Shown here: positions 3,092 to 34,062 of the stretch, one piece after another
Numbering within the stretch: position 1 is the first letter of the stretch
Layout: each line of letters opens with the position of its first letter
Notes under the pieces: model-generated
Told to the model about the DNA's origin: nothing
Database searches by the model: none
The model's input: the letters and a program-made list of their open reading frames with translations, nothing else
NCBI GenBank assembly: GCA_963662615.2
Contig: CAXXSR010000001.1
Coordinates: forward strand, 160,001 to 224,000
DNA length: 64,000 nucleotides
Direction: 5' to 3'
DNA from: Dehalococcoidia bacterium
GTDB taxonomy: Bacteria; Chloroflexota; Dehalococcoidia; Bin125
Made by a program: the position numbers and the translations under genes

Positions 3092-3100
3092 GTGGTGAAG

Positions 3101-3510: not shown

Positions 3511-3512
3511 CG

Positions 3513-5433: not shown

Positions 5434-5542
5434 GCGGCGCGCTCCGGGCAAGCATTCAGGTTCGGCTCGCGGGACGTGATGGTCTTGGTCATCAGCCCGG
5501 GCCCGGGCGGTCCACGTCTCCCATGACGGCCCGCAGCCGGGC

Positions 5543-6640: not shown

Positions 6641-6711
6641 CGTCTCGGGTTCTTTCAGAGCTCGGTCATCAACCAATGTCGTCTGCTTCAGGACTGTAGG
6701 TCCCGGGCACT

Positions 6712-7380: not shown

Positions 7381-7463
7381 TTCACGACCTCGACTCGTAC
7401 GGGCCGCCCCTCCGTGGGCTCGGGGGCCGGGTGGGCTCCCTGCCGCCACCCTGCCCAGGGACG

Positions 7464-12370: not shown

Positions 12371-12416
12371 TTGCCAGCATCGTTGACAGCGACGCCAACG
12401 AATTGACAGCGACGCC
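12371..12416. repeat. three direct repeats TTG(A/C)CAGC, two extended to TTGACAGCGACGCC (possible integrase arm-type sites)
   Basis: ttgccagc at 12371; ttgacagcgacgcc at 12383-12396 and 12403-12416. Confidence 0.6.
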
Positions 12417-12510
12417 TGTGGAATCCAGCCGACAGACGAAGCGTTGCCCCACTAAAGGACGGACCGAGCCGGACGACCCGGAATCATGTGCTGCGGATTT
12501 CAAGAGCGCC

Positions 12511-12646
12511 GCAAGGCGCGATTTTCACACTCTAACTGGACAACTTTTCCTGCTACCCTCCGGAGAGAAGCTCAGCGCATGTCGTTTGCGGCTTCCCAAG
12601 CAGAGGGGCGAGGGGTCGAGTCCCTTCTCCCGCTCCAGATCGTCCG
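12511..12646 (+). repeat. tRNA-Gly(CCC)-derived element, copy A (att-like/pseudo-tRNA)
   Basis: 12591-12637 matches the last 47 nt of the tRNA at 58950-59024 with 3 mismatches; whole element aligns with 29071-29204 in reverse. Confidence 0.85.
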
Positions 12647-12658
12647 GCAGGAGGCACC

Positions 12659-12988
12659 GTGCTCGCACTGTGGGTCAAGGTTCGAGTCCGCCCGGATCAA
12701 CGGGAGCGGTTTCTCAACGCGATTGAGACGGACGCCTTGGGCTCGGAGCGAGACGAGCCGGGCTGCCTGCGGTTCAACGTGCTCCAGGACGCCGAGGACG
12801 AGAACACGTACTACTACTACGAGGTGTATGAGGACGAAGCAGCGGTCGAGGCGCATCGGACGATGTCTCACTACGCGACCTGGAAGGCCGCCGGGGACAC
12901 GCTGGCCGGCCCGGTCGAGGTCACACGCCTGGATACGGTGTTCCCGGCCAACTCCGCGTACTGGGCGAAGAGGGAAAAGGGCAAGTGA
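12659..12988 (+). CDS. ABM family protein (putative quinol monooxygenase/LsrG-like)
   Basis: EPGCLRFNVLQD, YEVY, AHRTMSHY; AGGAGG RBS. Confidence 0.88.
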   Translation: MLALWVKVRVRPDQRERFLNAIETDALGSERDEPGCLRFNVLQDAEDENTYYYYEVYEDEAAVEAHRTMSHYATWKAAGDTLAGPVEVTRLDTVFPANSAYWAKREKGK

Positions 12989-13113
12989 GGACGGCTGCCG
13001 GAAGCGGAGCACAGCCGTCCAGGTGGACAAGGCGGTCGCTGGGGGACCGTGGTCCACTGCCGATCGAACGCACGCCACGCTGTTCTTGAGCCGCACGTGA
13101 CAAGGAGCCTTTG

Positions 13114-14829
13114 ATGCGAACGTACCACGACATTCGCCTGAGCGATCGCACCATCACGACGCAGGAGTTGCACGGCGAGGCGATCGTGAACGCCGGCCGC
13201 TACCTGATCGCCAAGACACTCCTGGCGATGGACGTAGCGACCGCCGACCCGCTGTCGCCGCGGAATCCCCTCATCTTCTCCGCCGGCCCCTTCGCCGGCT
13301 CCACGTTCTCCAACGCCAACCGCACGAGCGTGGGTTGCAAGAGCCCGCTCACGGGCGGCATCAAAGAGGCGAACGGAGGCGGCACCTTCGCCTACGCCCT
13401 GGGGCAGCTCCGCATCGCCGGGTTCACGCTTCTGGATGCCTCGCCGGACTGGGTCGTGCTCCACCTGAAGAAGGGCGGAGGCATGGAGTTTGACGACGCG
13501 GCTCCGTATCTGGGCAAGGGCAATGTCGAAGCGACCGAGATGCTGCTTGCGCAGTACGGCAAGAAGGTCGCGCTCGCGCTCTGTGGGCCTGTGGGCGAGT
13601 ACCAGGACCTCCTGGCGGGCATCACCTTCACCGATAAGGACCGCCGGCCGTCGCGGCTGGCAGCACGGGGCGGCGTGGGCGCTGTCATGGGGTCGAAGCG
13701 GGTCAAGGCCATCGTCGTCGATCTGGACCGCATGCCGCCTTTCGAGGAGCCAAAGAAGGTTAACGCCAGCATCAAGCAATACGCCCAGATGGTTCTCAAA
13801 GACGACGCCATTCAGAAGACCTACGCCCCACTCGGGACGATGGCCATGGCCGACCTCCAGAACTCCCTGGGAGGCTTGCCCGTGCGGAACTTCAGCGCCG
13901 GCCAGCTCGTTGACGTCGACGCCGGCGAGACGTTCAAGCTGGGCGCCGACTACATTGGACCGCTCAACACCTCGCGCGGCGGAGAGCAGACGCACGCCTG
14001 CATGCCGGGCTGCATCATCCAGTGCAGCAACGTCTACCACGACGCCGACGGCAAGGAGGTCGTTTCACCGGTTGAGTACGAGACGCTGGGCTTGTTGGGC
14101 TCCAACTGCGGCCTCACGGACCCGGACGACCTGGCGCAGCTCAACGCCATCGCCAACGACCTCGGCATCGACACCATCGAGACCGGCGCCACGCTCTCGG
14201 TGCTCATGGAGGGCGGGCTGGGCGCCTTTGGCGACGTGAAGTTCATGACCGACTGCCTGGCGGAGATCCGCGAAGGCACGGAGCAGGGGCGCCTCTGGGC
14301 GCAGGGGACGGCGCGCGTCGGCGCGCATTACGGGGTGCGTCGGGTGCCGGTGATCAAACGTCAGGCGATCAGTGCTTACGATCCCCGCGTCGTTGAGGCC
14401 ACGGGCATCGCGATGATGACGACGGCGCAGGGCGCGGACCACACGGTGGGCAACTTGCCCCGCCTGAAGACGCGCGAGATGGATACGGAGTCGCTTGTCA
14501 GCCAGAGCCTGGCCCAACAAACGAAAGTGGCCGCCACGGACTCGCTCGGCCTGTGCGTGTTTGGGCAGAGCGTGACCAACACGCAGTTGGAGTTCCTGAC
14601 CACCGCCCTCAACGCCGCGCACGGCACGAGCCTCAGCGAGGAGTTCTTCGAGGCTCTGGGGCGCGAGACGCTGCGCCTTGAGTGGGAGTTCAACCGCCAG
14701 GCCGGGTTCACAGAAAAGGACGACGAGCTGCCCGCTTTCTTCTACGAAGAGCCTCTGCCCCCGACCGACCGCGTGGCGCGCTTCCACGCCGAGGACGTTC
14801 ACGGGATGTACGAGCGCCTGACCGTCTGA
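13114..14829 (+). CDS. aldehyde:ferredoxin oxidoreductase family protein (W/Mo-pterin)
   Basis: KSPLTGGIKEANGGG, AARGGVGAVMGSK, CMPGCIIQC, EYET, DSLGLC; AAGGAG RBS. Confidence 0.92.
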   Translation: MRTYHDIRLSDRTITTQELHGEAIVNAGRYLIAKTLLAMDVATADPLSPRNPLIFSAGPFAGSTFSNANRTSVGCKSPLTGGIKEANGGGTFAYALGQLRIAGFTLLDASPDWVVLHLKKGGGMEFDDAAPYLGKGNVEATEMLLAQYGKKVALALCGPVGEYQDLLAGITFTDKDRRPSRLAARGGVGAVMGSKRVKAIVVDLDRMPPFEEPKKVNASIKQYAQMVLKDDAIQKTYAPLGTMAMADLQNSLGGLPVRNFSAGQLVDVDAGETFKLGADYIGPLNTSRGGEQTHACMPGCIIQCSNVYHDADGKEVVSPVEYETLGLLGSNCGLTDPDDLAQLNAIANDLGIDTIETGATLSVLMEGGLGAFGDVKFMTDCLAEIREGTEQGRLWAQGTARVGAHYGVRRVPVIKRQAISAYDPRVVEATGIAMMTTAQGADHTVGNLPRLKTREMDTESLVSQSLAQQTKVAATDSLGLCVFGQSVTNTQLEFLTTALNAAHGTSLSEEFFEALGRETLRLEWEFNRQAGFTEKDDELPAFFYEEPLPPTDRVARFHAEDVHGMYERLTV

Positions 14830-15048
14830 CGGCGCTGGCAAGGGTCGCTCAGAAGCGATGCTGCGACCTCCAATGCCTCCCAGGCTGCCGACGCCCTCCG
14901 CTGCGCGCGCGAAGTTCAGCACAGTACCCCGGCTGACCAAGGCAAGCACTCGATGTCGATACCACCCCAGGCGCGGGGGATCGTGCCGATTCAGGAGAAG
15001 CGTATCTCCCAAGCCGCATGCGCCGGCTGACGGAGCGGGGAGAGGGTC

Positions 15049-15456
15049 ATGAATGTGACAGTAGGGCAGATCAGCGAGAGGTCGCTTGAGGTCACGCCTC
15101 AACGCGTAGAGCTGTACGCGCAGGTGACCGGCGATCGCAACCCGCTGCACTTCGACCGTGAGTGGACGGCGCGGACGCGCTTTGGCCGGCTCATAGCGCA
15201 GGGTGGTCTTACGACGGGTTTGCTCCACGCCCTCGTGGTCATGGAGATGCCAGGGCCGGGCTCGGTCTTCATGGAGCAACATTGGCAGTTCCCCGCACCC
15301 GTCTATATTGGCGACACGATCACGGCCCGGGCGGCAGTGACCTGGGTGCATGAGCGCGAGCCAATTGCGCGCCTGGCGATGAACGTGACCAATCAGGACG
15401 GTGCGCAAGTATTGGCCGGAGAGGCGACGATCTACCAGGCCGAGGCGAGAGCGTAG
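15049..15456 (+). CDS. MaoC family dehydratase
   Basis: TGDRNPLHFD, MPGPGS, F.APVYIGDTI. Confidence 0.9.
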   Translation: MNVTVGQISERSLEVTPQRVELYAQVTGDRNPLHFDREWTARTRFGRLIAQGGLTTGLLHALVVMEMPGPGSVFMEQHWQFPAPVYIGDTITARAAVTWVHEREPIARLAMNVTNQDGAQVLAGEATIYQAEARA

Positions 15457-15590
15457 GTCCGCGCCGGCTGGCATTTCCCGCGCCCCCGGACCCCCGCCAT
15501 TCACACGCCGCGTGCGCCGGCTCCCAAAGCGCGCGGTTCGCTCGAACCGACACCGGCGGTGCAAGTCGTTGGCCAACGAGCCCAGCGTCC

Positions 15591-16808
15591 TGGACCTCAG
15601 GGGTCGCCGCGGTCGTCGTCCTCGCGATCGTCGGGCGCCGGCCCTTCGAGGGCGAGGCGGGGGCGGAGCAGGCGGAGCGTCCACTCCTTGGCTTGCAGGT
15701 AGAAGGAGCGGATCCCGCCCACGACGCCCTGGGGCAGCAGCAGAATCACGGCGATCAGGATCATGCCGTAGACGATCTGGCGCAGGATCGGATCGAGGTC
15801 GAGCACCTCGGGGAGAAACCAGACCACGACGGCGCCGGCGAGCGGCCCCAGGAGCCAGCGCGCGCCCCCGAGCAGCAACATCAAGACGATCAGGAGGCTG
15901 TCGAAGGCGTCAAACAGGCGCGGCTCAATATGGCGCAGGAAGTAGCCGTAGTAGACGCCCCCCACCCCCGCGAACAGGCCGCTGATCATGAAGGTGGAGA
16001 CTTTGGTCCAGTTGACGTTGATGCCCAGGGATCCCGCCAGGGGCTCGTTCTCCCGCACCGCCCGCATGGTGCGCCCGAGCGGCGAGTGGGCGATCCCGTA
16101 GACGCCGAGCATCGCCACGCCCAGGAAGGCCAGGATCAGGAAGTAGGCCGGCCGCAGGTCCACGAAATGTTGCCCCAGGACGGACGGAATCCGTTCCGGG
16201 ATAAAGAGCCCTTGGGCGCCGCCGGTGAGATCGCCCCCATTGGTGAGCACGATGGCTAAGAGCTCGCCGGAGGCAAAGGTCAGGATCAAGAAGTGGTGCC
16301 CGCTGACGCGAATGGAGGGGAAGCCCAGCACGCCCGCGGCGAGGGCGGCGGTGATCCCGGCCAGGGGGAGGGCGGCCCAGAAGGAGATGCCGAACTCGCG
16401 CAGGAGGATGGCGCCCAGATAGGCCCCCACGCCCATGAGCGCCGCGTGGGCGATGGAGATCATGCCGATCTGGCCGAAGAGGAGGGCGAGGCCGTAGAGC
16501 ACCACGGCGTTGACGGCGGTGAGGATGGCGATGCTGAGCAGCCGCTGCGTGGGCAGGATCCAGGGCAAGAGGATCAGCAGCGTGGGTATGGCGATCAGCA
16601 GGACGATCCGCTCGGGGGAGGGGGTTAGCAGATCCTCGGGGACGAAGGCGCGCCAGCCGCGGCCGGCATCCGCGGGGGTGTCCCCGCGCCGCTCACTCTT
16701 CAGCAATCGTTGCCCCCTCCGCTCTCACTGCCACCCTTCCGACCGGTCTTGGATGCGAGTCACGATGATAGGTCCCAGCAGCGCTGGGGGCGAGGATGGC
16801 GGCGCCCG
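15591..16808. repeat. 1218-bp direct duplication, copy 1 (copy 2 at 32739-33956)
   Basis: Same sequence at constant offset 17148; identical ORF translations; flanks diverge immediately outside. Confidence 0.93.
15597..16706 (-). CDS. livM: branched-chain amino acid ABC transporter permease (LivM-like), copy 1
   Basis: GQIGMISIAHAALMGVGAY, TGGAQG, SPLGRTMRAVRENE, LLGG...GPLAGA. Confidence 0.88.
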   Translation of the reverse strand: MLKSERRGDTPADAGRGWRAFVPEDLLTPSPERIVLLIAIPTLLILLPWILPTQRLLSIAILTAVNAVVLYGLALLFGQIGMISIAHAALMGVGAYLGAILLREFGISFWAALPLAGITAALAAGVLGFPSIRVSGHHFLILTFASGELLAIVLTNGGDLTGGAQGLFIPERIPSVLGQHFVDLRPAYFLILAFLGVAMLGVYGIAHSPLGRTMRAVRENEPLAGSLGINVNWTKVSTFMISGLFAGVGGVYYGYFLRHIEPRLFDAFDSLLIVLMLLLGGARWLLGPLAGAVVVWFLPEVLDLDPILRQIVYGMILIAVILLLPQGVVGGIRSFYLQAKEWTLRLLRPRLALEGPAPDDREDDDRGDP

Positions 16809-17312
16809 GCGGCTTCATGGTGGGCGACGCGCTCTACAGCTTCGAGATCGTCGAACGCGACAGCCGCTCCGAACAGGATCTGGCGGTGCCCGCGGTGATC
16901 GAGCTGGTTGGGGACATCGGCGTGCGGTACGTCATCGGTTCCATGCGGGACGACTACTCCGTCATCACGCAGGAGTACGCGAACCAGGAGGGCGTCATCC
17001 TGTTCCCCGGCTCGATGATTCACCAGACGTACCTCACCCCGGAGACCGTGGCCCCCGGTGGCGAGAAGCGTTTCCGCTTCAAGGTTCACCCGACTCACTT
17101 CGTCAGGGACGTGTTCTTGGCGGTGGGGGTGTCCGACTTCGTCCCGGAAGCGAAGAGCTCGGTGCTCTTCATCCGGGATGACCCCGTGGGCGATGCTGTC
17201 CCGCCATTCTGGACGTGGCGGAGCCGAAGGTGGGCCGCGAGCCGCCGGCTTTCCTCAAATCCCCGCCGGGCACGACCGACTTTGCCCCCATCGTGACGCG
17301 GTTGAAGGCCTT
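16809..17312 (+). pseudogene. internal fragment of ABC substrate-binding protein (paralogue of 31035-32461), frameshifted
   Basis: GGFMVGDALYSFEIVERDSRSE vs GGVQVGDTIYSLEIEERDIRSD; frame change near 17218 restores PPGTTDFAP; no signal peptide or C-terminus. Confidence 0.8.
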
Positions 17313-17447
17313 GGCGCTCAGAAACTCTCCTCAGAGCGCCGTCATTGCCGGCCGCTGGCGGCGGAGGTTCACACGTCTGGCTGCGCGACCCCGCCCGGTC
17401 CGACGACAGCGTCCTCACGCTCTCGCGGGAAGATCCCCCCTCTGGTC

Positions 17448-18995
17448 TCAAATTGACGCGCGCATCCAATCGGCAATGCGCTCACCGATCATGATGCAGG
17501 GGAGGTTGGTGTTCGCAGTGGGAATCGCTGGCATAATGGAGGCGTCGACTACGCGCAGGTTTTGCAGCCCGCGGACACGTCCCTGCTGATCGACGACGGC
17601 ACTGGGGTCGTCCGGCGGACCCATCTTGCAGGTGCAGCTCAGATGGTTGCCCGTGGTGGCCTCGGCGCGGAGGTACTCGTCCAGCGCCGCATCATCGCGC
17701 AGGGTGGCCTCGTCCAGCCCCACCACCCGCTCCGTCATCTCACGCATGGCCGGCGAGTGGACCATGTCCCAGGAGAGCCGCGTGCCCTCCCGCAAGCGGC
17801 GCATGTCGTTGGGGTCGTCGCCATAATTGAGGGTGACCAGCGGCGCCTCATGGCAGTCAGCGCTGCGAAGACGGACGCGGCCGCGCGTCTTGGGCACATG
17901 CTCAAGGACGACTCCCATGACGAAGAGCCTCAGCCAGCCATACGCGTCCTTTAACTCCGGCCCCTCTGACCAGGTGGCATACGTGAGCGGCAGCAGCTGC
18001 ATGTCGTTGGCGCGTGCGCTCCCTTCCGATGTGTAGCGGAGGGTGACCTGAACGACCGGATCCTCTGCCTTGGCATCCATCCCTTCCTTGTACAGGCACC
18101 GGATCACCGCCACCGGGTGATCGGTCAGGTTGGCGCCAACGCCCGGCAGATCCACCATGATTGGGATGCCCAGCGCCTCCAACTCCGCCCGGGGCCCCAC
18201 ACCAGAGCGCCAAAGGATGGGCGGCGTCTGAATCGCGCCCGCGGAGAGCACGATGTGCCGACCAGAGACGGTCTGCATTTCGCCGCCGCACTCCACCTCC
18301 AGGCCGACGGCGCGGTCCCCTTCGAAGATCACACGATTGACCAGGCAGTCGGCGCGGATGCTCAAGTTGAGGCGGTGGCGCGCCGGCGCCAGGTAGCCCA
18401 CCGCGGTGTCGATACGGGCACGGCCACTCCGATTCATGGCGATAGGGCTGACGCCGGTTGAGTCGGGGTGGTTGTGGTCCGGCGCGTACTCGTAGCCATG
18501 GTCGATGCACGCGGTCATGAAGGCCTTGTGCAAGGGGAGGAGTTCATGCTCTTTCCAGCGCACGATAGGGATGGGGCCTCCCTGCCCGTGGTAATCGCCG
18601 CCCTCATCTTGGTCGTCCTCCAGGCGGCGGAAGTAGGGGAGGACGTCTTTCCAGGACCAGTCTGGGTTGCCCAGCGCCGCCCATTCGTCGTAGTCGGTGG
18701 GACCAGTGCGCACGGCCATACAACCGTTGACGGACGAAGAGCCGCCGACGACTTTCCCGCGCGGCAACTGGATCATGCGGCCGGGAAACGCCTCGCCTTC
18801 GAAGTTCCAGTCGTGCGCGTCCAGCGAATGACAGTAGCTGCTGGCCAGATCGTCGGGCCTCTGGTCTAGGTTGGCGTAGTCGGGGCCCGCCTCCAGGAGC
18901 AGGACGCTGCGATGGCTGTCCTCGCTCAACCGTGCCGCCAGCACCGCGCCTGATGATCCCGCACCCACAATGATGACGTCGTATTCCGCTGACAT
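17448..18995 (-). CDS. GMC family oxidoreductase (choline dehydrogenase/MftG-like)
   Basis: YDVIIVGAGSSG, RGKVVGGSSSVNG, GVGANLTDH, HLSCTCKMG, ANTN; ATG at 18995. Confidence 0.92.
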   Translation of the reverse strand: MSAEYDVIIVGAGSSGAVLAARLSEDSHRSVLLLEAGPDYANLDQRPDDLASSYCHSLDAHDWNFEGEAFPGRMIQLPRGKVVGGSSSVNGCMAVRTGPTDYDEWAALGNPDWSWKDVLPYFRRLEDDQDEGGDYHGQGGPIPIVRWKEHELLPLHKAFMTACIDHGYEYAPDHNHPDSTGVSPIAMNRSGRARIDTAVGYLAPARHRLNLSIRADCLVNRVIFEGDRAVGLEVECGGEMQTVSGRHIVLSAGAIQTPPILWRSGVGPRAELEALGIPIMVDLPGVGANLTDHPVAVIRCLYKEGMDAKAEDPVVQVTLRYTSEGSARANDMQLLPLTYATWSEGPELKDAYGWLRLFVMGVVLEHVPKTRGRVRLRSADCHEAPLVTLNYGDDPNDMRRLREGTRLSWDMVHSPAMREMTERVVGLDEATLRDDAALDEYLRAEATTGNHLSCTCKMGPPDDPSAVVDQQGRVRGLQNLRVVDASIMPAIPTANTNLPCIMIGERIADWMRASI

Positions 18996-19221
18996 CGCCC
19001 CTGCCCCCCCCGAGCATGCGACCGCGCCGGCGTGAGCTGGGCGCCGCCGTCCGGCGCATCGTAGCATCGCGCAGGTGGAGGACGAAAAGAAACCGGCGGT
19101 TCCGCTGCGAGCAAAGCGGCGCGGCCACACCGGCGGCGGTGGACGGCAGGAGGCGGTGCACTGACGCGACGCCGCGCACGCACGCCCCGGCGGACTCCGG
19201 GAAGCGGTTGGGAGAATCAGT

Positions 19222-19932
19222 ATGTCCGAGCGCCGCACCGCGCCAGCCAGCTTCCTCTCGCGAGCCGGCTTTCCCGGCTACGTCGTCGTGGCAGCGCTCA
19301 TCGCCCTGCTCTTTTTCAGCGCCTGCGGTGGCGACGATTCCGGCGATGCGGCCGCCGCTCCCGCGATCGACTCCACTTCGGCCGGGGCGGAAGTCCCGAC
19401 TGCCGCCGCCGACAGCGCGGCAGTCCCGGCTGACGATGACGGGGCCGCCGCCGCCGCCGCCACGCCTGACGCCGACGCCCCGGTGCCCGCCGAGGCGGGC
19501 CGGCGGCCGCAGACTGGCGAGACTGTATCCGTCCACTATCACGGGACGCTCGATGACGGCGAGGTGTTCGACTCCTCACGTGAGCGAGCGACACCGTTCA
19601 CTTTTGTGGTCGGAGTCGGTAATGTCATCCCAGGGTTCGATGAAGCCGTGCTGGGCCTGGCGATCGGCGAGACGGTCACCGTCCGCATCCCGCCGGCCGA
19701 GGCCTACGGCGAACGCAACCCCGACCTGGTGGCGGAGGTGGCGTGGGACGAGGCCCCGGCGAGCCTCAGCAGCCTGCGCGGGAGCCTCACTGTTGGCGAC
19801 CGCCTCCCGCTAGGCAGCGGCGGAGCGGTCATCGTCGTTGCCCTCACGGACGAGAGCGTCACCCTCGATCAGAATCATCGCTTGGCCGGCCAGGCGCTCA
19901 CGTTTGAGCTCGAGCTTCTCTCGATCGAGTGA
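19222..19932 (+). CDS. FKBP-type peptidyl-prolyl isomerase (SlyD-like), predicted lipoprotein
   Basis: VHYHGTLDDGEVFDSS, VIPGFDEA, AYG, NHRLAGQALTF; FSAC lipobox then Ala/Asp linker. Confidence 0.9.
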   Translation: MSERRTAPASFLSRAGFPGYVVVAALIALLFFSACGGDDSGDAAAAPAIDSTSAGAEVPTAAADSAAVPADDDGAAAAAATPDADAPVPAEAGRRPQTGETVSVHYHGTLDDGEVFDSSRERATPFTFVVGVGNVIPGFDEAVLGLAIGETVTVRIPPAEAYGERNPDLVAEVAWDEAPASLSSLRGSLTVGDRLPLGSGGAVIVVALTDESVTLDQNHRLAGQALTFELELLSIE

Positions 19933-20214
19933 GGCGTTGCCCGTGAGCGCGCGCATGCCCACCCCGCCGCTACTACAGCGCTTGAGAGGGCGACGTCGCG
20001 GCCCTCCTCGGCGTGAGGGGCGGGTGTGGTCACCTCGCTCCCAGCGATTGCGGTGGCTCGCCAGGCAAGGTCGCCCTCCACGCCAATCACTGGGTTCCGA
20101 CGTGGCGGTGTTCAGTGCGACGAGGGACTTTTCAGGGATGACGAACTCAGGGACGATGGATGCTCGGCGGGGAGCCGAGCCGGCAGCACCGCGCTGTCGG
20201 AGGGAGGAGATGCC

Positions 20215-20952
20215 GTGGACGGCGTTCTATCGGATATCAAAGCGCTCACCTTCGACGTTGGCGGCACGGTTTTCGACTGGCACAGCACAATCCGCGACGA
20301 AGTCGCTCGACTCGCTGGGGAGCGTGGGGTCGAGGTCGATGCTCCCAAGCTGACGAATGACTGGCGCTCACGGATGTTCGAGCTGCTCGCCTCCGTGCGC
20401 AGCGGTGATCTCCCCTGGATGAACGCCGATCAAATGCACCGCCGGGCGCTGGACGACATCCTGCCGAACCACCCCACGCTGGCGCTCAGCGCCGCCGCGC
20501 GTGACGATCTCAACCTCGTGTGGCATCGCCTCAGGGTCTGGCCGGACTTCCCGCCCGCTCTCGAGCGATTGCGCAGCCGCTACACGGTCGTGGTGCTGAC
20601 AATACTGAGTTGGTCCATCGCCGTTGACAGCTCCAAGCGTGGCGGGCTCTGGTGGGATGGAATCATCTCCTGTGAGTTCTTGGGGCATTACAAGCCCGAC
20701 CGGGAGGTCTACGAGAATGGCGTCCGCCTCCTGGGCGTCGCTCCCGAGCAGGCCATGATGGTGGCCGCCCACCCAGGCGATCTCCGCGGCGCCAAGGCTG
20801 CCGGGCTGCACACCGCCTACGTCCCGCGACCCGACGAACGCGGACCCGGCACCCTTGCCGGCTTCGATGACCCGGACCTCTCGCCGCAAGCCGACTTCGA
20901 CATCAATGCGCGGGACTTCGCCGACCTGGCGCGGCGTCTGGTGGGCGGATAG
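20215..20952 (+). CDS. haloacid dehalogenase type II (HAD)
   Basis: FDVGGTVFDW, YKPD, MMVAAHPGDL; GTG after GGAGGAG. Confidence 0.88.
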   Translation: MDGVLSDIKALTFDVGGTVFDWHSTIRDEVARLAGERGVEVDAPKLTNDWRSRMFELLASVRSGDLPWMNADQMHRRALDDILPNHPTLALSAAARDDLNLVWHRLRVWPDFPPALERLRSRYTVVVLTILSWSIAVDSSKRGGLWWDGIISCEFLGHYKPDREVYENGVRLLGVAPEQAMMVAAHPGDLRGAKAAGLHTAYVPRPDERGPGTLAGFDDPDLSPQADFDINARDFADLARRLVGG

Positions 20953-20978
20953 ATGGGGACCCCGCGGAGGAGAGCCGG

Positions 20979-21971
20979 ATGAACGCGCTGCCCCTCGACG
21001 TCGTTGGCGTGGGAAACGCCATCGTCGATGTGATCGCTGCGGCGGCGGACTCCGAGCTGCGGCGGCTCGGGCTCGAAAAGGGCGCGATGCAGTTGATCGA
21101 TTCGGCTCGCGTACACGAGCTGTACGAGCGGATGGCTGCCGGGGTCGAAGTCTCCGGCGGCTCCGCCGCCAATACGCTTGCCGGCATCGCCTCACTGGGC
21201 GGCAGGGCAGCCTTTATTGGCAAGGTCCGAGATGATCAGTTCGGCGAGGTGTTCAGCCACGACCTCCAGGCCGCCGGCGTCGAATGCCGCACACGCCCCG
21301 CGACGGCTGGAGCGCCGACCGGGCGTAGCCTCATCTTCGTGACGCCCGACGCGCAGCGCACCATGCAGACCTACCTCGGCGTGAGCGGGGAACTCGGCCC
21401 GGACGACATCGATCCGGAGGTCATTGGCCGGGCCCGCATCACCTATCTGGAGGGCTACTTGTTCGATAAGGACGAGGCCAAGGATGCGTTCATCAAGGCG
21501 GCGGAGATCGCCCATGCCGCCGGACGCAAGGTGGCGCTGTCCCTGTCCGATCGGCTCTGCGTCGATCGCCACCGCGCCTCGTTCCAGGATCTGGTCTCGC
21601 GGCACGTTGACATCCTGTTCGCCAACGAGGCCGAGATCACGGCTCTGTTCGAGGTCCGGGACTTCGACGCCGCGACGCACGAGATCCAGGGCCACTGCGC
21701 GATGGCGGCGCTCACCCGCGGGGCGGAGGGCGCGACCATCGTCACCGCCGAGTCCAGCATCGCCATCGCCGCCACGCCTGTGGCGCGGGTGATCGACACC
21801 ACCGGCGCGGGCGACCTCTTCGCCGCGGGAGTGCTCTACGGGCTCAGCCAACGCCTGGAACTCGCCGCCTGCGGGCGCATTGGCAGCATGGCCGCCGCCG
21901 AGATCATCAGCCATTACGGCGCCCGGCCTGAAACTTCACTCGCCACACTGCTGGCTCAGGAGAGCGGCTGA
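20979..21971 (+). CDS. PfkB family carbohydrate/adenosine kinase
   Basis: GNAIVD, SGGSAANT, FANEAE, DTTGAGD. Confidence 0.92.
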   Translation: MNALPLDVVGVGNAIVDVIAAAADSELRRLGLEKGAMQLIDSARVHELYERMAAGVEVSGGSAANTLAGIASLGGRAAFIGKVRDDQFGEVFSHDLQAAGVECRTRPATAGAPTGRSLIFVTPDAQRTMQTYLGVSGELGPDDIDPEVIGRARITYLEGYLFDKDEAKDAFIKAAEIAHAAGRKVALSLSDRLCVDRHRASFQDLVSRHVDILFANEAEITALFEVRDFDAATHEIQGHCAMAALTRGAEGATIVTAESSIAIAATPVARVIDTTGAGDLFAAGVLYGLSQRLELAACGRIGSMAAAEIISHYGARPETSLATLLAQESG

Positions 21972-22185
21972 GTTCGTAATGGCGAGCCGCCGCGACCGTC
22001 GCCGTGTTCGAGGATCCGGTGGCGCGTGTCGCGGCCCTCGCAATCTGCCCCGGTGCAGGCGAACTAGACGTCAGGACGCTCTAGGGCCGCTTTCTGATCG
22101 ACGACACGAATCGGCAGATCGGGCACGCCGTGGTGATGGTGCGCTGGGAGAGCTGGCCTCGCGGCCGGCTGAACGGATCGATGGA

Positions 22186-23622
22186 CTAGACAGCCGGCCG
22201 GGAGAGCATGTGGGGCTCCACTCGGCGGGGGAGCCAGCTGCCGTCAAGAGGGCTGCCAACCAAGGCTCCGTCCTCCACAATGACCTTGCCCCGCAGCACG
22301 GTGACGACCGGATAGCCCCGGCAGGCGAAGCCCTCCCAGATGCTGTAGTCCGAGTCCGCGTGCAGATTGTCCAGTGTGATCGTTCTTTCGAGGCTGGGAT
22401 CGATCATGACGAAGTCGGCGTCGCTGCCGGGCAAGATCGCACCCTTGCGCGGGTAGAGCCCCAGGATCTTCGCCGCGTTCGTGGCGATGACGTCGGCAAA
22501 CCGCTGGAGGGGCATCCCACGTTCTTGGACGAGCTTGGTGAAGGCGACAGGAACGCGCGTCTCGATCCCGTTGTGACCACCGCAGACCGAATCAAGCGTC
22601 TGCCCCCAGAGCTTCACGTCTTTCGAGGTGGTGTACTCGTCCGTCGCGGTGGTGGCAAGCCGCCCGTCCATGAGCCCGGCGATCAGCGCCTCGCGGTCGG
22701 CCGCTGACTTGAGGGCGGGATAGGTATGGATCGCCGTTCCGCCCGGCCGTTTGTAATCGTCCCCCGTGAAGTGGAGGTAGTGGTGCAGCGCTTCGCCGTA
22801 CACGGGGAGGCCTTGATCGCGCGCCTCGGCGATGGCCTCGACTCCCTCCTTCGCCGTCGTATGGACGAAATAGATGCCGACGCCTGCCCGCTTCGCCATG
22901 CGGATCACGGTCCGGAAGGCGACGTCCTCGGAGAGGTTGCTGTGGACCAGCGGCAAATTGTAGCCCTGATCGCGGCCCTCCCGCTTGAGCTTCTCGCGCG
23001 TGTAGCGAACGATCTCGTCCTCCTCAGCGTGGACGGCCATGATGCCGCCCGACCTCGCGACCTCTTCGAAGACAGCGCTGAGGTGGCCGTAGGGCACCCG
23101 AGTCGGGCCAAACGTCGTGAAGACCTTGAAGCTCGCGACGCCCTCCTGCACCGCCTCCCCGATCTCCCCCAGGGTCGTTGGCGGCACCTCGCCGGTCAGG
23201 ATGGCGTGAAAGGTGAAGTCCGTGTGGCAGTGACCGGCGAAGTGCGCCTTCCGATCATCGATGCGCTCCATGATCGACGGCGCCGACGCTTCTCCATCGC
23301 GGCGCTCCCGCGGCCAGGCGAAATCGACGATGGTGGTGACGCCGCCGAACGCCGCCGCGCGACTGGCGCCCTCCGTGCCCTGCGTGAAAACGTCGGGCCG
23401 GCCGGCCCACTCGATTCGGACGCGATGCGCGATATGCGCATGGGGCTCGATCCCACCCGGGAAGACGATCTTGCCCGTGGCGTCAATGACGCGCGCCGCG
23501 TCGTCGTCCAAGGAGCCGCGCGCGGCAAGCGCGACGATCGTTTCGCCGACAACGCCGATATCGAGGGGCGCGACGGTCTCCGGAGTGACGACCTCCCCAC
23601 CGCGGATGATCAGGTCCAGCAG
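22186..23622 (-). CDS. dihydropyrimidinase/hydantoinase-like amidohydrolase
   Basis: In-frame N-terminus LLDLIIRGGEVV from a CTG after GAGGT; PGGIEPHAH, GGVTT, SFKVF, HAEE, NAAKILGLYPRKG. Confidence 0.88.
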   Translation of the reverse strand: MLDLIIRGGEVVTPETVAPLDIGVVGETIVALAARGSLDDDAARVIDATGKIVFPGGIEPHAHIAHRVRIEWAGRPDVFTQGTEGASRAAAFGGVTTIVDFAWPRERRDGEASAPSIMERIDDRKAHFAGHCHTDFTFHAILTGEVPPTTLGEIGEAVQEGVASFKVFTTFGPTRVPYGHLSAVFEEVARSGGIMAVHAEEDEIVRYTREKLKREGRDQGYNLPLVHSNLSEDVAFRTVIRMAKRAGVGIYFVHTTAKEGVEAIAEARDQGLPVYGEALHHYLHFTGDDYKRPGGTAIHTYPALKSAADREALIAGLMDGRLATTATDEYTTSKDVKLWGQTLDSVCGGHNGIETRVPVAFTKLVQERGMPLQRFADVIATNAAKILGLYPRKGAILPGSDADFVMIDPSLERTITLDNLHADSDYSIWEGFACRGYPVVTVLRGKVIVEDGALVGSPLDGSWLPRRVEPHMLSRPAV

Positions 23623-23704
23623 CTGCGCACCTCACATCCGCGTCGTCGCGGTCCGGCACCGCGTCGCTGGGCCGAAGGATAGACCCCTCGACAAGAGCGA
23701 GGGG

Positions 23705-25291
23705 TCACGTGGCGGGACGTCCGCGCCGCAACGCCCGCCCCGGCAGCGCGCCGGTGTTTTTGCCCTGGTCGATCACGAGCTGCCCGTTCACGATCACGTA
23801 CTCGATGCCCTGCGGGAACTGGCGCGGGTCCGAGCGAGACGCGGGGGCGTGGACGGTCTCGGCATCGAAGACGACGACGTCGGCGCGAAACCCGTCGCGC
23901 AGCAGGCCGCGGTCGGGCAGGCCCAGGCGCTGGGCCGGGAACGACGTCATCTTGCGGATCGCCTCTTCCAGGGAGAGCGTGCGCTCCCGCCGGACGAAAT
24001 GCCCCAAGACGTGGGGGAAGCAGCCGTAGGTTCGAGGACTGGGATGCGCGCCGAGGAGGATCGCGTCGCTGGCGATCATGCCGTACGGGTGCGCCACGAA
24101 GGCCGGGATCGCCGTTTCCGCGGGGGCGGCGCCGATCCAGGTGAGGCCGAGGTTCTCGGCGAGGATCAGGTCCGCCAGCGCGTCGACCGGATCTTGGTTC
24201 CGCGTGGCGGCAATCTCGGCGATGGTGCGGCCGTCGTATTGGACGTTGTCCGGCTGCGTGAAGTTCGTCAGCCAGCCCAGCTCCCAGCCTTGGCGCGCTG
24301 GCCGGCGGCTGAGTTCCTCCTTAATCCGCGCCCGGTCCGCCGGGCGATCGAGCGCCTGGATGATCCCTTCGGGTCCGCCCTCTTTCGTCCAATCAGGCAG
24401 GAGGATCGTGGCGGTGGTGCTGGCATACGGATAGGGGTAGGCGTCAAAGGTGACGTCCAGGCCGTCGCGGCGGGCGTCCTCCACGAGTTCCAGATAGGCG
24501 TGGCGACCCGCGGGGCTGTCGGTGGGCTGGTAGTAGTGCGTCAGGTGCACCGGGGCGTCGCTGCGACGCCCGATCTCCAGCGCCTCCTCCCAAGGCAGGA
24601 GTGGGCTTTGCGCCCGCAGGCTGGAGCGCGTGTGCGTATGGTAGAAGCCTCCCGCTCTGCCGCAGACTTCCATCAGCGCCACCAGCTCGTCCGTGCTCGC
24701 GTACGATCCTGGAGGGTAATCGAGGCCCGTGGAGAGCCCCCAGGCGCCCGCCTCCATCGCCTCGCGCACGACGGACTGCATCTCCGCGACTTCCTCCTCG
24801 CTGGCTGGACGGTCGTGCCAGCCCACGGACCAGATGCGGACGGGCGAGCCGCCCAGGATGTGGGCCACGTTGATGGCCACGGTGCGATCGTAGCGGTCGA
24901 GCAGATCGCCCACGGTGAGCCAGTGGGCCGCTTGCGGCGGGTACCCGTTCAGCCCGGCGTTGAGCCAGATGTACCGATCCCGCTCCTCCCGCGAGCGGAA
25001 CGGCGCGTAGGAGATCCCGTCGACGCCGATGAGCTCGGTCGTGACCCCCTGCCGGACCTTCGGATCGTGGTGCGGCTCCCCGAAAATCGTGAACCCGGCA
25101 TGCGAGTGCAGGTCGATGAAGCCGGGGCAGACGACGCGAGCGGAGGCGTCGATGGTGCGGCGGGCCACGATTCCGTCCGCCGTCCCGCGTTGAATCGCTA
25201 CCCGATCGCCGTCCACGAGCACGTGCGCGCGGAAGCCGGGACTCCCGCTCCCGTCGATGATGAGGCCGCCGCGGATCAGCAGATCGACCAT
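23705..25291 (-). CDS. N-acyl-D-amino acid deacylase (D-aminoacylase family)
   Basis: PGFIDLHSH, QGVTTE, GLSTGLDYPPG, HPSPRTYGCF, AIRKMTS. Confidence 0.92.
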   Translation of the reverse strand: MVDLLIRGGLIIDGSGSPGFRAHVLVDGDRVAIQRGTADGIVARRTIDASARVVCPGFIDLHSHAGFTIFGEPHHDPKVRQGVTTELIGVDGISYAPFRSREERDRYIWLNAGLNGYPPQAAHWLTVGDLLDRYDRTVAINVAHILGGSPVRIWSVGWHDRPASEEEVAEMQSVVREAMEAGAWGLSTGLDYPPGSYASTDELVALMEVCGRAGGFYHTHTRSSLRAQSPLLPWEEALEIGRRSDAPVHLTHYYQPTDSPAGRHAYLELVEDARRDGLDVTFDAYPYPYASTTATILLPDWTKEGGPEGIIQALDRPADRARIKEELSRRPARQGWELGWLTNFTQPDNVQYDGRTIAEIAATRNQDPVDALADLILAENLGLTWIGAAPAETAIPAFVAHPYGMIASDAILLGAHPSPRTYGCFPHVLGHFVRRERTLSLEEAIRKMTSFPAQRLGLPDRGLLRDGFRADVVVFDAETVHAPASRSDPRQFPQGIEYVIVNGQLVIDQGKNTGALPGRALRRGRPAT

Positions 25292-25450
25292 GGCACTCTG
25301 GCCCCCTTCGCATGCCCGCCGGGCGAGCCGACACCCGCCGGAGTGTACACGCGCTGCCAGGGACCACGAGCGAATCTGTCGGGGTGTGGCGCGTTGGCCA
25401 TGCTGATCAGCGCCATGCTGACCGGCGGTGCGCCCTCCGCGGTGGAGCTG

Positions 25451-26422
25451 CTAGGCGTTCACCACGTTGACCGGCGCGCCGTCCAGAAACGCCTTCAAGT
25501 TGCCCACAGCGATGTCCAGCAGGCGTTGGCGCGACTCCTTGGCGTACCAGGAGATGTGGGGAGTGATGATGCAGCGAGGTGCGCCAATCAACGGGCTGTC
25601 GGGCGGAGGCGGCTCCGTGTCCAGCACGTCCAAGGCGGCCCCGGCGATCTGCCCGGCCCGCAGGGCGTCGGCCAGCGCCTGCGAGTCCACCAAGGGCCCG
25701 CGACTGGTGTTCAGGAGGATGGCCGTGGGTTTCATCAAGCGCAGGCGTTCCGCGTTCACGAGGCGATCGGTTTCCGGAGTCAAGGGGCAGTGCAGGCTAA
25801 TCACGTCGGCCTCGCGGAAGAGCCGTTCCATCGATGTGTACTGCACGGGCAGGCCGCCGAGCTGCGCCGGAGTCAGCTCGACCGCATCATGGGCGATGAT
25901 ACGCATTCCCATGGCCGCGGCGATGCGAGCAAAGGCCAGGCCTATCCGACCGAGTCCGACCACGCCCAGTGTCTTGTCCGTCAGTTCAATCATGGGGGCA
26001 AGCGCAAAGCACCAATCCTCGCTTGTGCTCCACTCGCCGCGATGCACGGCGTCGCTGTGTATGCCCACGTGCCGGACGAGCTCGAGCATCAAGGCGGTCG
26101 CGTGCTGCGACACGGAGTTCGTGCCATAGGTCGGGATGTTCGTGACGGGGATCCCTCTGCTCTTCGCCGCGCCAACGTCGACGACGTCAAAGCCCGTCGC
26201 CATCACCCCCACGTATCGCAGCTGCGGCAATTCGTCGATCGTGTCGGCGGACAGAGGGGTCTTGTTGGTGAAGACGTAGGGCGCGTCTCTAGCACGCGCG
26301 ACAATCTGGTCGTCCGGAGTACGGTCATACACCGTGAGGTCACCAAAGATCTCCAGCGACTCCCATGACAGGTCCCCTGGGTTGAGCGTGTAACCATCCA
26401 AGACCACGATCGGTTCGGGCAC
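25451..26422 (-). CDS. hprA: glycerate dehydrogenase/hydroxypyruvate reductase (D-2-hydroxyacid dehydrogenase)
   Basis: IVVLDGYTLNPGDLSW, ATGFDVVD, GLGRIG, LHCPLT, NTSRG, ITPHISW. Confidence 0.82.
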   Translation of the reverse strand: MPEPIVVLDGYTLNPGDLSWESLEIFGDLTVYDRTPDDQIVARARDAPYVFTNKTPLSADTIDELPQLRYVGVMATGFDVVDVGAAKSRGIPVTNIPTYGTNSVSQHATALMLELVRHVGIHSDAVHRGEWSTSEDWCFALAPMIELTDKTLGVVGLGRIGLAFARIAAAMGMRIIAHDAVELTPAQLGGLPVQYTSMERLFREADVISLHCPLTPETDRLVNAERLRLMKPTAILLNTSRGPLVDSQALADALRAGQIAGAALDVLDTEPPPPDSPLIGAPRCIITPHISWYAKESRQRLLDIAVGNLKAFLDGAPVNVVNA

Positions 26423-26470
26423 GGTGCGGTCCTTCCATTGCGGCCGACTTCAGCGGGATCGGAGCCACGG

Positions 26471-26746
26471 TCAGCGGCGACCCGAGGGCGTCAGTTGCTC
26501 ATCCCCGCGCGCCAGGGCGGTAGAAATCGTCACAAGCAAGCGCCGCGCCGATTGCGCCGAAAGTTCAACCGCCACCCGCGCTCCCGGCCCGGCGGCCGGG
26601 TTGACGAAATCAAGGCAGAGGGCGTGCTCCATGGTTGCGTGGAAGGGATGGTCGAACGAGACGTTGACTTGTTCGAGCGGGAACCAGCCTTGCGCGCCTT
26701 TCCCGCTTCCAACGATTTCCGCCTTCTCGACGATCATGGTGCACAT
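26471..26746 (-). CDS. DUF6295-like small conserved protein
   Basis: MCTMI...GSGKG..GWF..DHPFHA..EHAL..DF...RVAVEL; GAGGAG RBS. Confidence 0.75.
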   Translation of the reverse strand: MCTMIVEKAEIVGSGKGAQGWFPLEQVNVSFDHPFHATMEHALCLDFVNPAAGPGARVAVELSAQSARRLLVTISTALARGDEQLTPSGRR

Positions 26747-26780
26747 GGACTCTCTCCTCGCCAGGACCCACCGGGCCGCG

Positions 26781-27545
26781 TCAGTCTGACCCGACAAGAT
26801 GTGTCTGGAAGAACGCGAACAGCTTCTGCCAGCCATCCACCGCCTGCTCCTGCCGATACATCGGCCGGTCATAGTAGAAGAAGCCGTGTCCCGCTCCGTC
26901 GTAGATGTGGAACTCGTACGCCTTGCCATGTTTCTTTAACTCCTGCTCGTGCTGCGCGACCTGTTCCGGCGTCGGAGATTGGTCGTCCGCGCCGAAGAGG
27001 CCCAGCAGGGGACAGGAGAGGTCGGCCGTGTAGTCGATGGGAGCGACCGGCTGTTTGGGGCTGAGATCCTCCTGCGCCATCACCACGCGACCGCCCCAGC
27101 AGTCGACCGCCGCGTTGAAGCCCTGCGATCGGGAGGCGGCAAGAACCGTTTGGCGGCCGCCCGAGCAGGTGCCCATCACGCCGACCTTCCCGTTGAGGTA
27201 GGGGAGGGAGCGCAGGAAGCGCATGCTGCCCTCAGCATCGCCGACGACCTGGTCGTCCGGAACACCGCCCTGCGCGCGGACCGCGGCGGCGACGTCCTCG
27301 GGGGTCCCGTGCCCCTCGCGGTGATACAGATTCGGGGAGATGGCCACATAGCCATGGTGGGCGAAGCGGCGCGTCGTCTCCCTGTACCACTCGTCCCAGC
27401 CGGGGATGTGATGGAGGAGAACCACGCCGGGAAACGGCCCGGCGCCCATGGGCCGCGCGAGGTAGGCATAGATCGCATCGCCCCCGTGGCCCGACACGGT
27501 CGTGGTCTCCGCGATCATGCCTTCGTACGAATCGGTTCGGTACAA
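26781..27545 (-). CDS. dienelactone hydrolase family protein
   Basis: GTCSGG nucleophile motif, GADD, GAGHGF; TTG start after GGAGG. Confidence 0.9.
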   Translation of the reverse strand: MYRTDSYEGMIAETTTVSGHGGDAIYAYLARPMGAGPFPGVVLLHHIPGWDEWYRETTRRFAHHGYVAISPNLYHREGHGTPEDVAAAVRAQGGVPDDQVVGDAEGSMRFLRSLPYLNGKVGVMGTCSGGRQTVLAASRSQGFNAAVDCWGGRVVMAQEDLSPKQPVAPIDYTADLSCPLLGLFGADDQSPTPEQVAQHEQELKKHGKAYEFHIYDGAGHGFFYYDRPMYRQEQAVDGWQKLFAFFQTHLVGSD

Positions 27546-27937
27546 ATGGAGCCTCCCTTGCTTGTCCCTTCGATCCGTCCCAACAGGCGGGCAACCGGCG
27601 AGACGCGCCCCAGCCTTCCAAGCGGCGGCCCAGCGCATCCCCCTGCGCCCACGGAGTTCACGGCTCCGTGCGGCTTGCGGTCGCAGGCCGTACCGACTGG
27701 CATTCTAGGCGATGCGATCGTCGATGGAGCGCGTTGTTCCGAGGAGAACTCGCCGCGGGTCCTTTCCACGTCGGACTGGGCGAGTGGCTGCCTGGACCCA
27801 CGGGGTGATCCGCACTGCCCACAGGGAGCGCGGCCAGGAGGGGTAGCGACCCCCAAATGTCAGCGAGAACTCGGGGAGGCGCTCGCCTGTTGGGCGGCGA
27901 CGTAGGTCGAACTGCCCGGGCGACCCGGAGGGCCGCG

Positions 27938-28960
27938 TCAGTTCGGCAGGAAGATGCCCTTGCCGGTCGTCTGGCTGTCGAACAGCTTGTAGGCCTGCTC
28001 GGCCTCCTCCAGCTTGAAGCGGTGGGTCAGCAGCTTGGGCAGCGGCAACTCGTGGTCAATGACGAAGCGGGCGCACTCCGCCTGCCCAACATTGCTGAAG
28101 GTCCATGACCCGTAGATCGTCAGCTGCTTGTGGATGATGTCGGGGCTGATGTCGAACGTGGTCGTGTTCCCCTCGCCCACGAAGCAGACACGGCCCCAGT
28201 GCGCCGCGCTCTTGACGGCGTTGACTCTCGCCTCCGGGTTGCCGGTGCAGTCCAGGGTCGTCTGGGCGCCCTCACCATGAGTCAGATCCTGGATCGCTTT
28301 GACCACGTCTCCTTCGCGCGCGTCCAGGACCACGTCCGCCCCGAAGTCGGCGGCAAGGCTGACACGCTCGGGGACCGGGTCGATGGCGATCACGCGGGCG
28401 CCCATCGCCTTTGCCAACATCGTGGCGCTGAGGCCCACGGGACCTTGACCGAAGATTGCGAGCGTGTCGCGACCGGAGACAGCCAATCGGGACAGGGCGA
28501 CGTACGCCGTGGCCGTGCCGCACGAGATCGACGCCCCCTCCTCGAAGCTCAGCTCGTCCTGAAGCGGGACCAACATGTAGGGGTGCACCAGCATCATTGG
28601 CGCGTGCCCCCCGTTCGCGGTGGACCCGTAGACCTGGTGGCCGTAGAGGCACATCTGCGTGTAGCCGACCTGGCAGTGCTTGCATTCCCCGCAGCCGCTG
28701 TAGTGGTGCACCATGACGCGCCGGCCGATCGGCGCTTCTTCTTCCAGGACGGCCGACCCGCGCGCCAGGACTACGCCGCAGGGCTCGTGGCCGCGCACGA
28801 TGGGACGGAACGCCTCCGTGGGCGCTCGATAGCCCGTCAGGTCGCTGCCGCACATGCCGGACGCCCTGATCTCCACCACCACTTCCCGAGGCCCGGGCGC
28901 CGGATCCGGGAAGTCGCGCAGCTCAAGGTTGCGCTCACCGAGAAAGACAACGCCACGCAT
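27938..28960 (-). CDS. zinc-binding alcohol dehydrogenase (MDR)
   Basis: CGSD, GHE, CGECKHC-x7-C structural Zn, GQGPVG. Confidence 0.92.
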   Translation of the reverse strand: MRGVVFLGERNLELRDFPDPAPGPREVVVEIRASGMCGSDLTGYRAPTEAFRPIVRGHEPCGVVLARGSAVLEEEAPIGRRVMVHHYSGCGECKHCQVGYTQMCLYGHQVYGSTANGGHAPMMLVHPYMLVPLQDELSFEEGASISCGTATAYVALSRLAVSGRDTLAIFGQGPVGLSATMLAKAMGARVIAIDPVPERVSLAADFGADVVLDAREGDVVKAIQDLTHGEGAQTTLDCTGNPEARVNAVKSAAHWGRVCFVGEGNTTTFDISPDIIHKQLTIYGSWTFSNVGQAECARFVIDHELPLPKLLTHRFKLEEAEQAYKLFDSQTTGKGIFLPN

Positions 28961-29070
28961 TTCCTTACTCCCTTTCAGCGCTCCTGGACCGACGACTCGG
29001 CGCGACGGCTACTGGTCGCCAGGCGGACGTCTGCGCACGCTCGCGCTTCGCCCTAGCACACTCGCGGTTC

Positions 29071-29204
29071 CCGGAGATCGAAGCAGGAGAAGGGGCCCGA
29101 ACCCTCTACCCTCTGCCTGGGAAGTCGGAAGCGAGACGCGCTGTGCTTCTCCCTGGAGGGTAGCAGGAAAGGTTGTCGAGTTCGGGTGTGAGATCGCGCC
29201 TCGC
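29071..29204 (-). repeat. tRNA-Gly(CCC)-derived element, copy B (att-like/pseudo-tRNA)
   Basis: Reverse strand contains cttcccaggcagagggtagagggttcgggccccttctcctgct (tRNA 3' part) and the same upstream flank (acaac.tttcctgctaccctcc) as copy A. Confidence 0.85.
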
Positions 29205-29311
29205 GACAGTCTAAACATTTGATTTGTCCCGTCCTCCATAGTCCGCAGTCGTCCGCGTTGGCGGCGACCTCTCGGGCTGCTCGCCGGCGGCCGTTCGGGG
29301 AGTTCTGGGCG

Positions 29312-32461: not shown

Positions 32462-32738
32462 CTCGCTGCTTTCCTCTCTCCTTCTCGCTTCTTGCTTGCT
32501 TGTGTGTCGTCCCGGTGGCGGGAACGCCTCCTCGCTTTCGCAGGTTTCTTGAACCGTCGAACTCTTCCTCCCTTCCGGGACAGGGCGCCTGATCACGCTC
32601 CTTGGACCCGGGCAACCGTCCCAAACGATAGGCGTAACAGATAATCCGGCACAAGGCAAGATCGTTGATTGGCGGGCAGCGCGGTCCGGAAGGCGGCAGG
32701 CGATCGATGGGAACGGTCGAATCGTGAGTGCCGCACCG

Positions 32739-33956: not shown

Positions 33957-34062
33957 CCCGCTTGATGCCACGGCGTCCTGGCCCCGCGGGAGCCGCCCAC
34001 GACGAGGAGGACTGTGGGGCGCCACCGCACTGTGTCTCGGGTGTGTGCCGCAGCCGTGTCCC

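Follow-up and report, generated by a model that had tools for sequence, protein, structure and literature searches.

Islander defines genomic islands by a tRNA gene, a displaced fragment of that gene and an integrase, and 2083 of its 3919 islands are described as anticodon-centred (PMC4383910); the use of the 7-bp anticodon loop as an overlap region is reviewed in PMC8371274. In Dehalococcoides, tandem direct-repeat scars with a conserved upstream motif have been described downstream of ssrA, together with 15 islands without an integration module (PMC3146451). ssrA islands are also reported from Dehalogenimonas (PMC13390414), and the IME1 elements of Dehalococcoides are described as integrating downstream of tRNA or pseudo-tRNA genes via a tyrosine recombinase (bioRxiv 10.64898/2026.09.15.751708). 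Promoters at element ends, upstream of attP, have been tested in the integrative and conjugative elements (ICEs) ICEKp1, ICEclc and ICEEc1 (PMC13023037). Here we analyse a 64-kb stretch of contig CAXXSR010000001.1 (positions 160,001 to 224,000; hereafter the window, with coordinates counted from its first base), in which a first-pass annotation had noticed two dispersed copies, A and B, of an element derived from tRNA-Gly(CCC). We favour, with moderate confidence, the reading that A and B are decayed attachment-site (att) scars, of attR or tandem-junction type, of elements recombining at the anticodon loop of tRNA-Gly(CCC).

Copies A and B are a real feature. Local alignment places them in 145 columns, 117 of which are identical, with a score of 169 against a maximum of 39 among 1000 shuffles, and BLASTN within the window aligns them at 81.9% over 138 nucleotides (nt) (E 1.6e-31). 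The similarity of about 80% over the whole length, as first judged by eye, was thus borne out, while the unit proved to be about 145 nt long rather than about 135 bp. The non-tRNA upstream part is homologous between the copies by itself (score 75; maximum 30 among 5000 shuffles) and unlike the region upstream of the host tRNA, in agreement with the claim of a shared flank absent from the real tRNA locus. Each unit consists of five parts, namely an arm of 57-60 nt that ends in the extended -10-like motif TGCTACCCT, a tRNA 5' relic, a replaced segment, a tRNA 3' half and a common tail of 9-10 nt; both the motif and the tail had been seen by the first-pass annotation. These parts, and the tRNA gene with which they are compared, are located as follows.

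12503-12647, + strand: copy A, whole unit (BLASTN and local alignment).
12503-12562, + strand: non-tRNA arm of copy A, the putative P arm and putative promoter of the element.
12551-12559, + strand: extended -10 motif TGCTACCCT of copy A (motif scan).
12563-12577, + strand: relic of tRNA-Gly nt 3-17 in copy A (13/15 match; nt 8 changed from T to A, as in B).
12578-12591, + strand: 14-nt segment of copy A in place of tRNA nt 18-29 (alignment).
12592-12637, + strand: tRNA-Gly(CCC) 3' half of copy A, from anticodon loop to CCA, the putative att core (43/46 identical to the host tRNA).
12638-12647, + strand: tail of copy A, also in B (alignment).
29071-29212, - strand: copy B, whole unit (BLASTN and local alignment).
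29154-29212, - strand: non-tRNA arm of copy B (alignment), with TGCTACCCT at 29165-29157.
29125-29153, - strand: relic of tRNA nt 3-17 (29153-29139) and replaced segment (29138-29125) of copy B (alignment).
29080-29124, - strand: tRNA-Gly 3' half of copy B (5 substitutions, CCA broken).
58950-59024, - strand: intact host tRNA-Gly(CCC), the presumed integration target (ARAGORN, Rfam).

The evidence that carries the att-scar reading is an asymmetry about the anticodon loop. Both copies hold the anticodon-to-acceptor part of the host tRNA-Gly(CCC), as originally reported: in the 46-nt stretch that runs from the loop through CCA, three positions of A and five of B depart from the tRNA, and B has one gap besides. 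As A and B never changed at the same position of this core, their common ancestor was identical to the host tRNA there. None of the changes common to both copies falls within these 46 nt, whereas six substitutions in 27 nt and two insertions lie 5' of the loop (Fisher p=0.0017; if nt 18-29 were replaced in one event, the test exaggerates the asymmetry, and some three events remain, each on the 5' side of the loop). The block of identity extends to CCA from tRNA nt 30, which immediately precedes the anticodon loop. In both copies, a shared foreign arm thus meets, at the loop, a 3' half that still matched the host tRNA in full at the time of the A/B split. The 5' half had been called remodelled and is indeed changed, but not evenly: nt 3-17 are kept with a single shared change in 15, and nt 18-29 are swapped for 14 other bases, in which the best alignment finds 5 substitutions and 2 insertions common to both copies. 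Within the window, only A, B and the tRNA itself reach the 13/15 match of the relic. Changes that arose after the split are spread throughout the unit (arm 10/57, relic 3/19, replaced part 5/13, core 9/46, tail 1/10), and this even spread, set beside the asymmetry of the shared changes, indicates that the tRNA part was preserved up to the split and has drifted only afterwards.

The host gene is the sole tRNA that ARAGORN and Rfam find in the window. In the genome collection its 3' 43-mer matched three loci, one from Chloroflexi and two from Dehalococcoidia, all of them intact tRNAs. The host gene has an RDD-family gene nearby; the same holds for the three loci, which also neighbour homologues of the protein encoded at 61872-62882 of the window (27-31% identity, these relatives being distant). 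From this we infer a Dehalococcoidia host, with 58950 as the native tRNA locus. At one T-loop position A agrees with these relatives and B with the host, a split that would fit two events at different times and also one transition. At one of the relatives' loci (L003, 1-210) the contig ends 95 nt past tRNA-Gly, a direct repeat of 14 nt occurs in that stretch, and the tRNA itself sits between the units of an imperfect direct repeat of 18 nt; the stretch may be an attL with arm sites.

Breaks at the same point were also seen outside the window. Among four phage or plasmid loci that were opened, two hold tRNA-Gly 3' fragments that start at the anticodon loop beside integrase genes, and two hold whole tRNAs; BLASTN of A and B against phages and plasmids returned tRNA parts or short chance words only. 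One antisense frame is open in both A and B with a shared stop, and 10 of its 20 changes are synonymous (p=0.025 as the best of six frames). That this frame might be the tail of an integrase gene crossing the site in antisense, in the manner of DsiB at ssrA, was considered and rejected, the p value being not significant after correction and no protein match carrying a recombinase domain; TBLASTN of the frame gave nothing below E 0.5. Searches of protein sets with the frame yielded 3, 12 and 22 matches. Four of the 12 lie over a tRNA-Gly half and the other eight, multi-stretch matches in longer proteins, were excluded (two of the eight were examined); the 22 include the peptide P0137 again. Among 28 peptides antisense over tRNA-Gly(CCC) 3' halves, chosen by search and not a random sample, 20 depart from the tRNA sequence just past the anticodon loop (one of them borderline) and the other 8 run on into the tRNA 5' half, a pattern that suggests a frequent split of tRNA-Gly(CCC) at this loop. 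The departing arms form families across records (P0130/P0151/P0154 and P0146/P0148, all spurious antisense open reading frames (ORFs)). P0137 has a different T-arm, and 9 of its 21 residues match the A/B arm in register. The chance of this match is 5e-5 per trial; among 153,143 background frames, 10 attain 9 residues and 36 its BLOSUM score. As P0137 was picked by a search with an uncounted number of trials, the match becomes borderline significant if a few hundred to a thousand trials are assumed. The same arm beside a different T-arm is what would be expected if the element supplied the arm and each host its own 3' half, and P0137 is a probable third arm, on a different tRNA-Gly type.

Taken together, a break at the anticodon loop, which is the signature of attR-type scars, an identity block that runs from that loop, the location of B, which lies some 30 kb downstream of the tRNA and in the same orientation, and the probable third arm on another tRNA-Gly type argue for the att-scar reading. 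An element whose attP comprised the arm and a tRNA 3' half would have recombined at the anticodon loop of tRNA-Gly(CCC), and its insertion would have restored the tRNA gene while pushing the arm and the displaced 3' half downstream. Its integrase genes may have been lost, be encoded elsewhere or have acted in trans. B would then be the far end of an accreted region of about 30 kb, and A an older or duplicated scar that was inverted or copied later; we regard two integrations and one scar copied once as about equally probable. The arm itself seems to be derived from an entire tRNA gene that was captured; since only the 3' half of that gene needed to remain intact, nt 3-17 would persist as a relic. 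The outward-facing extended -10 of the arm may now drive the genes behind the scars, which would explain why these were retained. An arm that keeps tRNA nt 3-17, and an extended -10 that faces a co-oriented gene, are unusual for such scars.

Several observations weigh against this reading, beyond the caution on the Fisher value. Copy A is inverted relative to the tRNA, and the tRNA's own trailer mismatches the A/B tail. The cognate integrase that had been proposed as a check was looked for without success: neither the 56 genes of the window nor its 218 gap frames include a tyrosine or serine recombinase, and no such enzyme is encoded by the 42 ORFs beside the three relatives' tRNAs. The window gives no signal of a compositional island (29-59 kb has a GC content of 0.67-0.68 and tetranucleotide r of 0.96-0.99 with other segments). 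Since a 5' tRNA relic is missing from both phage att sites, the A/B arm is not canonical. Conservation around the -10 is not significant, since a 16-nt identical run is expected by chance (P=0.60), and P0137, a search-picked match known as a peptide only, does not keep the -10 in register. The second search, finally, brought no further member of the A/B arm family among its 21 new matches.

The alternative that survives best, which we nevertheless consider unlikely, requires no site-specific recombination: a whole tRNA-Gly gene with its own promoter would have been duplicated or transferred, locally inactivated (by a leader deletion, a change at nt 8 and the replacement of nt 18-29) and then copied once by a short duplication. 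It accounts directly for the 5' relic, whose D-loop bases are the host's and unlike those of the three relatives (L001-L003). Two relatives' tRNA-Gly promoters have TGCTAnnnT, and two relatives' trailers read CCAGAT, as in A. The region also produces short duplications (15591-16819 equals 32739-33967 at 99.8%), and no recombinase lies nearby. Against such a pseudogene, the arm has no detectable similarity to the regions upstream of the host tRNA or of the three relatives' tRNAs, its -10 ends 1 nt before tRNA nt 1 as opposed to 8-11 nt in the real promoters, every shared change lies 5' of the anticodon loop, and P0137 suggests that the same arm occurs on another tRNA type.

We judge it improbable that A and B are a non-autonomous unit of about 180 nt, similar to a miniature inverted-repeat transposable element, which would carry a promoter and a pseudo-tRNA between imperfect inverted repeats, be moved in trans and capture genes as a portable promoter. 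The two copies do share sharp boundaries with unrelated genes on all four sides, and an imperfect inverted repeat bounds copy A at the following position.

12468-12482, + strand: 15-nt imperfect inverted repeat of A's 3' end (13/15), a candidate outer boundary or arm site.

The same 8-mer recurs upstream of B at a similar place, and an IS3/IS481-type transposase core fragment (rve_3) lies at 55760-56206 (+), 2.7 kb downstream of the tRNA. Both repeat observations are post hoc, however. The far-upstream alignment of A and B is not significant, since 28% of random pieces align as well; the window contains the 8-mer 11 times, and two other sites in it resemble the inverted repeat. No target-site duplication was found, the flanks sharing words of at most 5 nt, which lie away from the ends of the 145-nt unit. 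Only two copies were found: a profile search of the window and of the three relatives' tRNA loci returned only A, B and real tRNAs (a weak match at 26694-26646, E 0.22, was dropped as lying within a coding region), and a strict pattern of arm, relic and loop had no match in 185,579 GTDB genomes, which do not include the source species; this pattern is exact at about 22 positions and would miss most copies 10% diverged.

More doubtful still is that the units are the borders of cassettes in an active, integrase-free, integron-like array, in which a tRNA-derived site with its own promoter would be served by an integrase in trans; single metabolic genes would then be added or shuffled downstream of tRNA-Gly in Dehalococcoidia, and the arm would form a family across hosts, of which P0137 would be a member. 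Such a system is conceivable and at present unsupported. The window contains no IntI gene, and A and B have no attC-like bottom-strand hairpin. Attachment scars of a tRNA-targeting family, one half of the inference drawn by the first-pass annotation, are thus what we favour. The other half, in which a mobile promoter or recombination site would assemble the cargo array, is unsupported: only two copies were found, with no recombinase in the window and no target-site duplication.

Neither copy is a tRNA, and neither was called as one by ARAGORN or assigned to any Rfam family; the absence of a cloverleaf had been correctly noted. Their stems are broken, with 4/7 acceptor and 3/5 anticodon pairs in A and 5/7 and 2/5 in B, nt 8 is A in both, the T-loop is altered in both, and CCA is broken in B. 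A conserved RNA fold or known RNA family was rejected, as folding (z +0.31 and -0.73) is no better than that of shuffles, whichever strand is taken, and the two-sequence consensus fold has little covariation. Least probable of all is a functional tRNA-derived leader or regulatory RNA that controls the downstream genes in the manner of tRNA-Other of Bacillus cereus, a pseudo-tRNA at an island end described as part of a larger regulatory RNA (PMC3399842): both copies do lie between a -10 motif and a co-oriented gene, but they decayed evenly after the split without sign of RNA function, the tRNA part having diverged as much as the arm, with the T-loop, the anticodon loop and CCA all hit by changes, folding at the level of shuffles, no Rfam family and no strict-pattern copy in the GTDB genomes.

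Each copy is followed by a co-oriented gene, as first described.

12659-14829, + strand: ABM monooxygenase and aldehyde:ferredoxin oxidoreductase genes, 11 nt downstream of A (ABM start at 12659).
27938-28960, - strand: zinc-dependent alcohol dehydrogenase gene, 110 nt downstream of B (start at 28960).

Under the att-scar reading, the extended -10 of the arm may serve as a promoter for these genes. The motif TGnTAnnnT occurs six times in the window, and five of these, A and B included, lie closely upstream of a co-oriented gene. A sigma-70 scanner found no full promoter (a scored -35/-10 pair) at A or B. Because the A/B motif ends 1 nt before the position of tRNA nt 1, a transcript would start within the relic; the tRNA-Gly of two of the three relatives has the same motif 8 and 10 nt ahead of the tRNA. 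On their upstream sides the units adjoin mutually unrelated neighbours, a divergent 2-hydroxyacid dehydrogenase gene and a DUF3179 gene. Between copy A and the divergent dehydrogenase gene lies a perfect 14-nt direct repeat, TTGACAGCGACGCC, spaced by 20 nt (12383-12416), a candidate for regulator boxes or arm sites. An imperfect 15-nt direct repeat, spaced by 21 nt, directly follows the tail of B (29035-29070) and could represent arm-type binding sites.

The window as a whole is a run of catabolic genes of uniform composition. A corrinoid methyltransferase cluster occupies 1475-8731 (-), with a RACo activator, a corrinoid protein, an MtaA-like protein and methyltransferases for methyl-tetrahydrofolate and homocysteine. 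Genes for sarcosine oxidase subunits, a type III glutamine synthetase, glutamate synthase-like subunits and urease at 39620-54055 suggest, by predicted function, the use of methylamine and urea nitrogen. The first gene downstream of the tRNA (56262-58886, -) encodes an 874-amino-acid Gly-rich protein that is probably secreted and has no Pfam or NCBIfam match. The 1229-bp direct duplicate mentioned above (99.8% identical) spans a LivM-type permease gene and about 110 nt upstream of it, and its first copy abuts a livK paralogue truncated at the N-terminus (16796-17296); it is either a recent single-gene duplication or an assembly artefact. A second LivK-type binding protein gene, at 31035-32659 (-), is seemingly split into two overlapping ORFs, by a frameshift or a sequencing error, and has a 75% nucleotide match, inverted, to 16807-17309. 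That A and B might be part of one large inverted duplication together with the livK paralogues was rejected, as gene order differs and the paralogues are far older (57% protein identity).

Scars of this kind at tRNA genes are common, and A and B are probably a variant of a familiar type. If they are att scars, they would date and delimit accreted catabolic genes in a probable Dehalococcoidia genome, in a stretch that island finders would miss because its integrase is gone and its composition is host-like. They would also be fossils that record how capture of an entire tRNA gene can give rise to an attP arm, and how a promoter at an element's end was retained for cargo genes. This would be of value to specialists in island evolution and overturns nothing; active cassette borders, by contrast, would matter far more, since they would offer a way in which the catabolic gene repertoire of these bacteria could have expanded.

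Compared with described systems, A and B resemble tRNA-Other of Bacillus cereus in being pseudo-tRNA sequences at an island border and differ in their even decay, since tRNA-Other is described as transcribed and associated with phenotypes (PMC3399842). They share with the P3'end/Pcirc promoters of ICEKp1, ICEclc and ICEEc1 a promoter motif just upstream of the att core, and ICEclc likewise uses tRNA-Gly; those promoters were tested and are described as driving the integrase after excision in intact ICEs, whereas A and B have a motif that faces cargo genes (PMC13023037). Like the attR fragments of Islander (anticodon-loop subsite A), A and B are 3' tRNA fragments that begin in the anticodon loop (PMC4383910). 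Islander places the fragment downstream of the tRNA in the same orientation within 2-200 kb; B fits, at 30 kb on the same strand, and A is on the opposite strand. In contrast to Islander islands, there is no integrase between tRNA and fragment, the sequences are decayed, A is inverted and the arm includes the relic of nt 3-17. We therefore liken A and B to attR scars without classing them as Islander islands, as A fails on orientation and both fail on the integrase. In the literature consulted, mostly non-subscription papers, we found no description of an att arm that retains a tRNA 5'-half relic, which is weak evidence of novelty.

The ssrA islands of Dehalococcoides offer a further comparison (PMC3146451). 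They differ in target and in detail, A and B being directed at the anticodon loop of tRNA-Gly(CCC) rather than the T-loop of ssrA, with a repeat of 46 nt as against 20, and the window has no transfer-messenger RNA gene, no ssrA 3' repeat and no DsiB/DsiA. The integration module of those islands carries a tRNA-Gly-like locus that, compared by description, is also an element-borne pseudo-tRNA-Gly with its 3' end best conserved; it forms a full cloverleaf within the module's fifth gene, whereas A and B are unfolded and intergenic. Common to both systems, which probably occur in the same bacterial class (Dehalococcoidia), is the presence of several scars behind a single RNA gene, every one of them preceded directly by a conserved non-host motif; many of the ssrA islands are also described as having metabolic cargo and no integration module.

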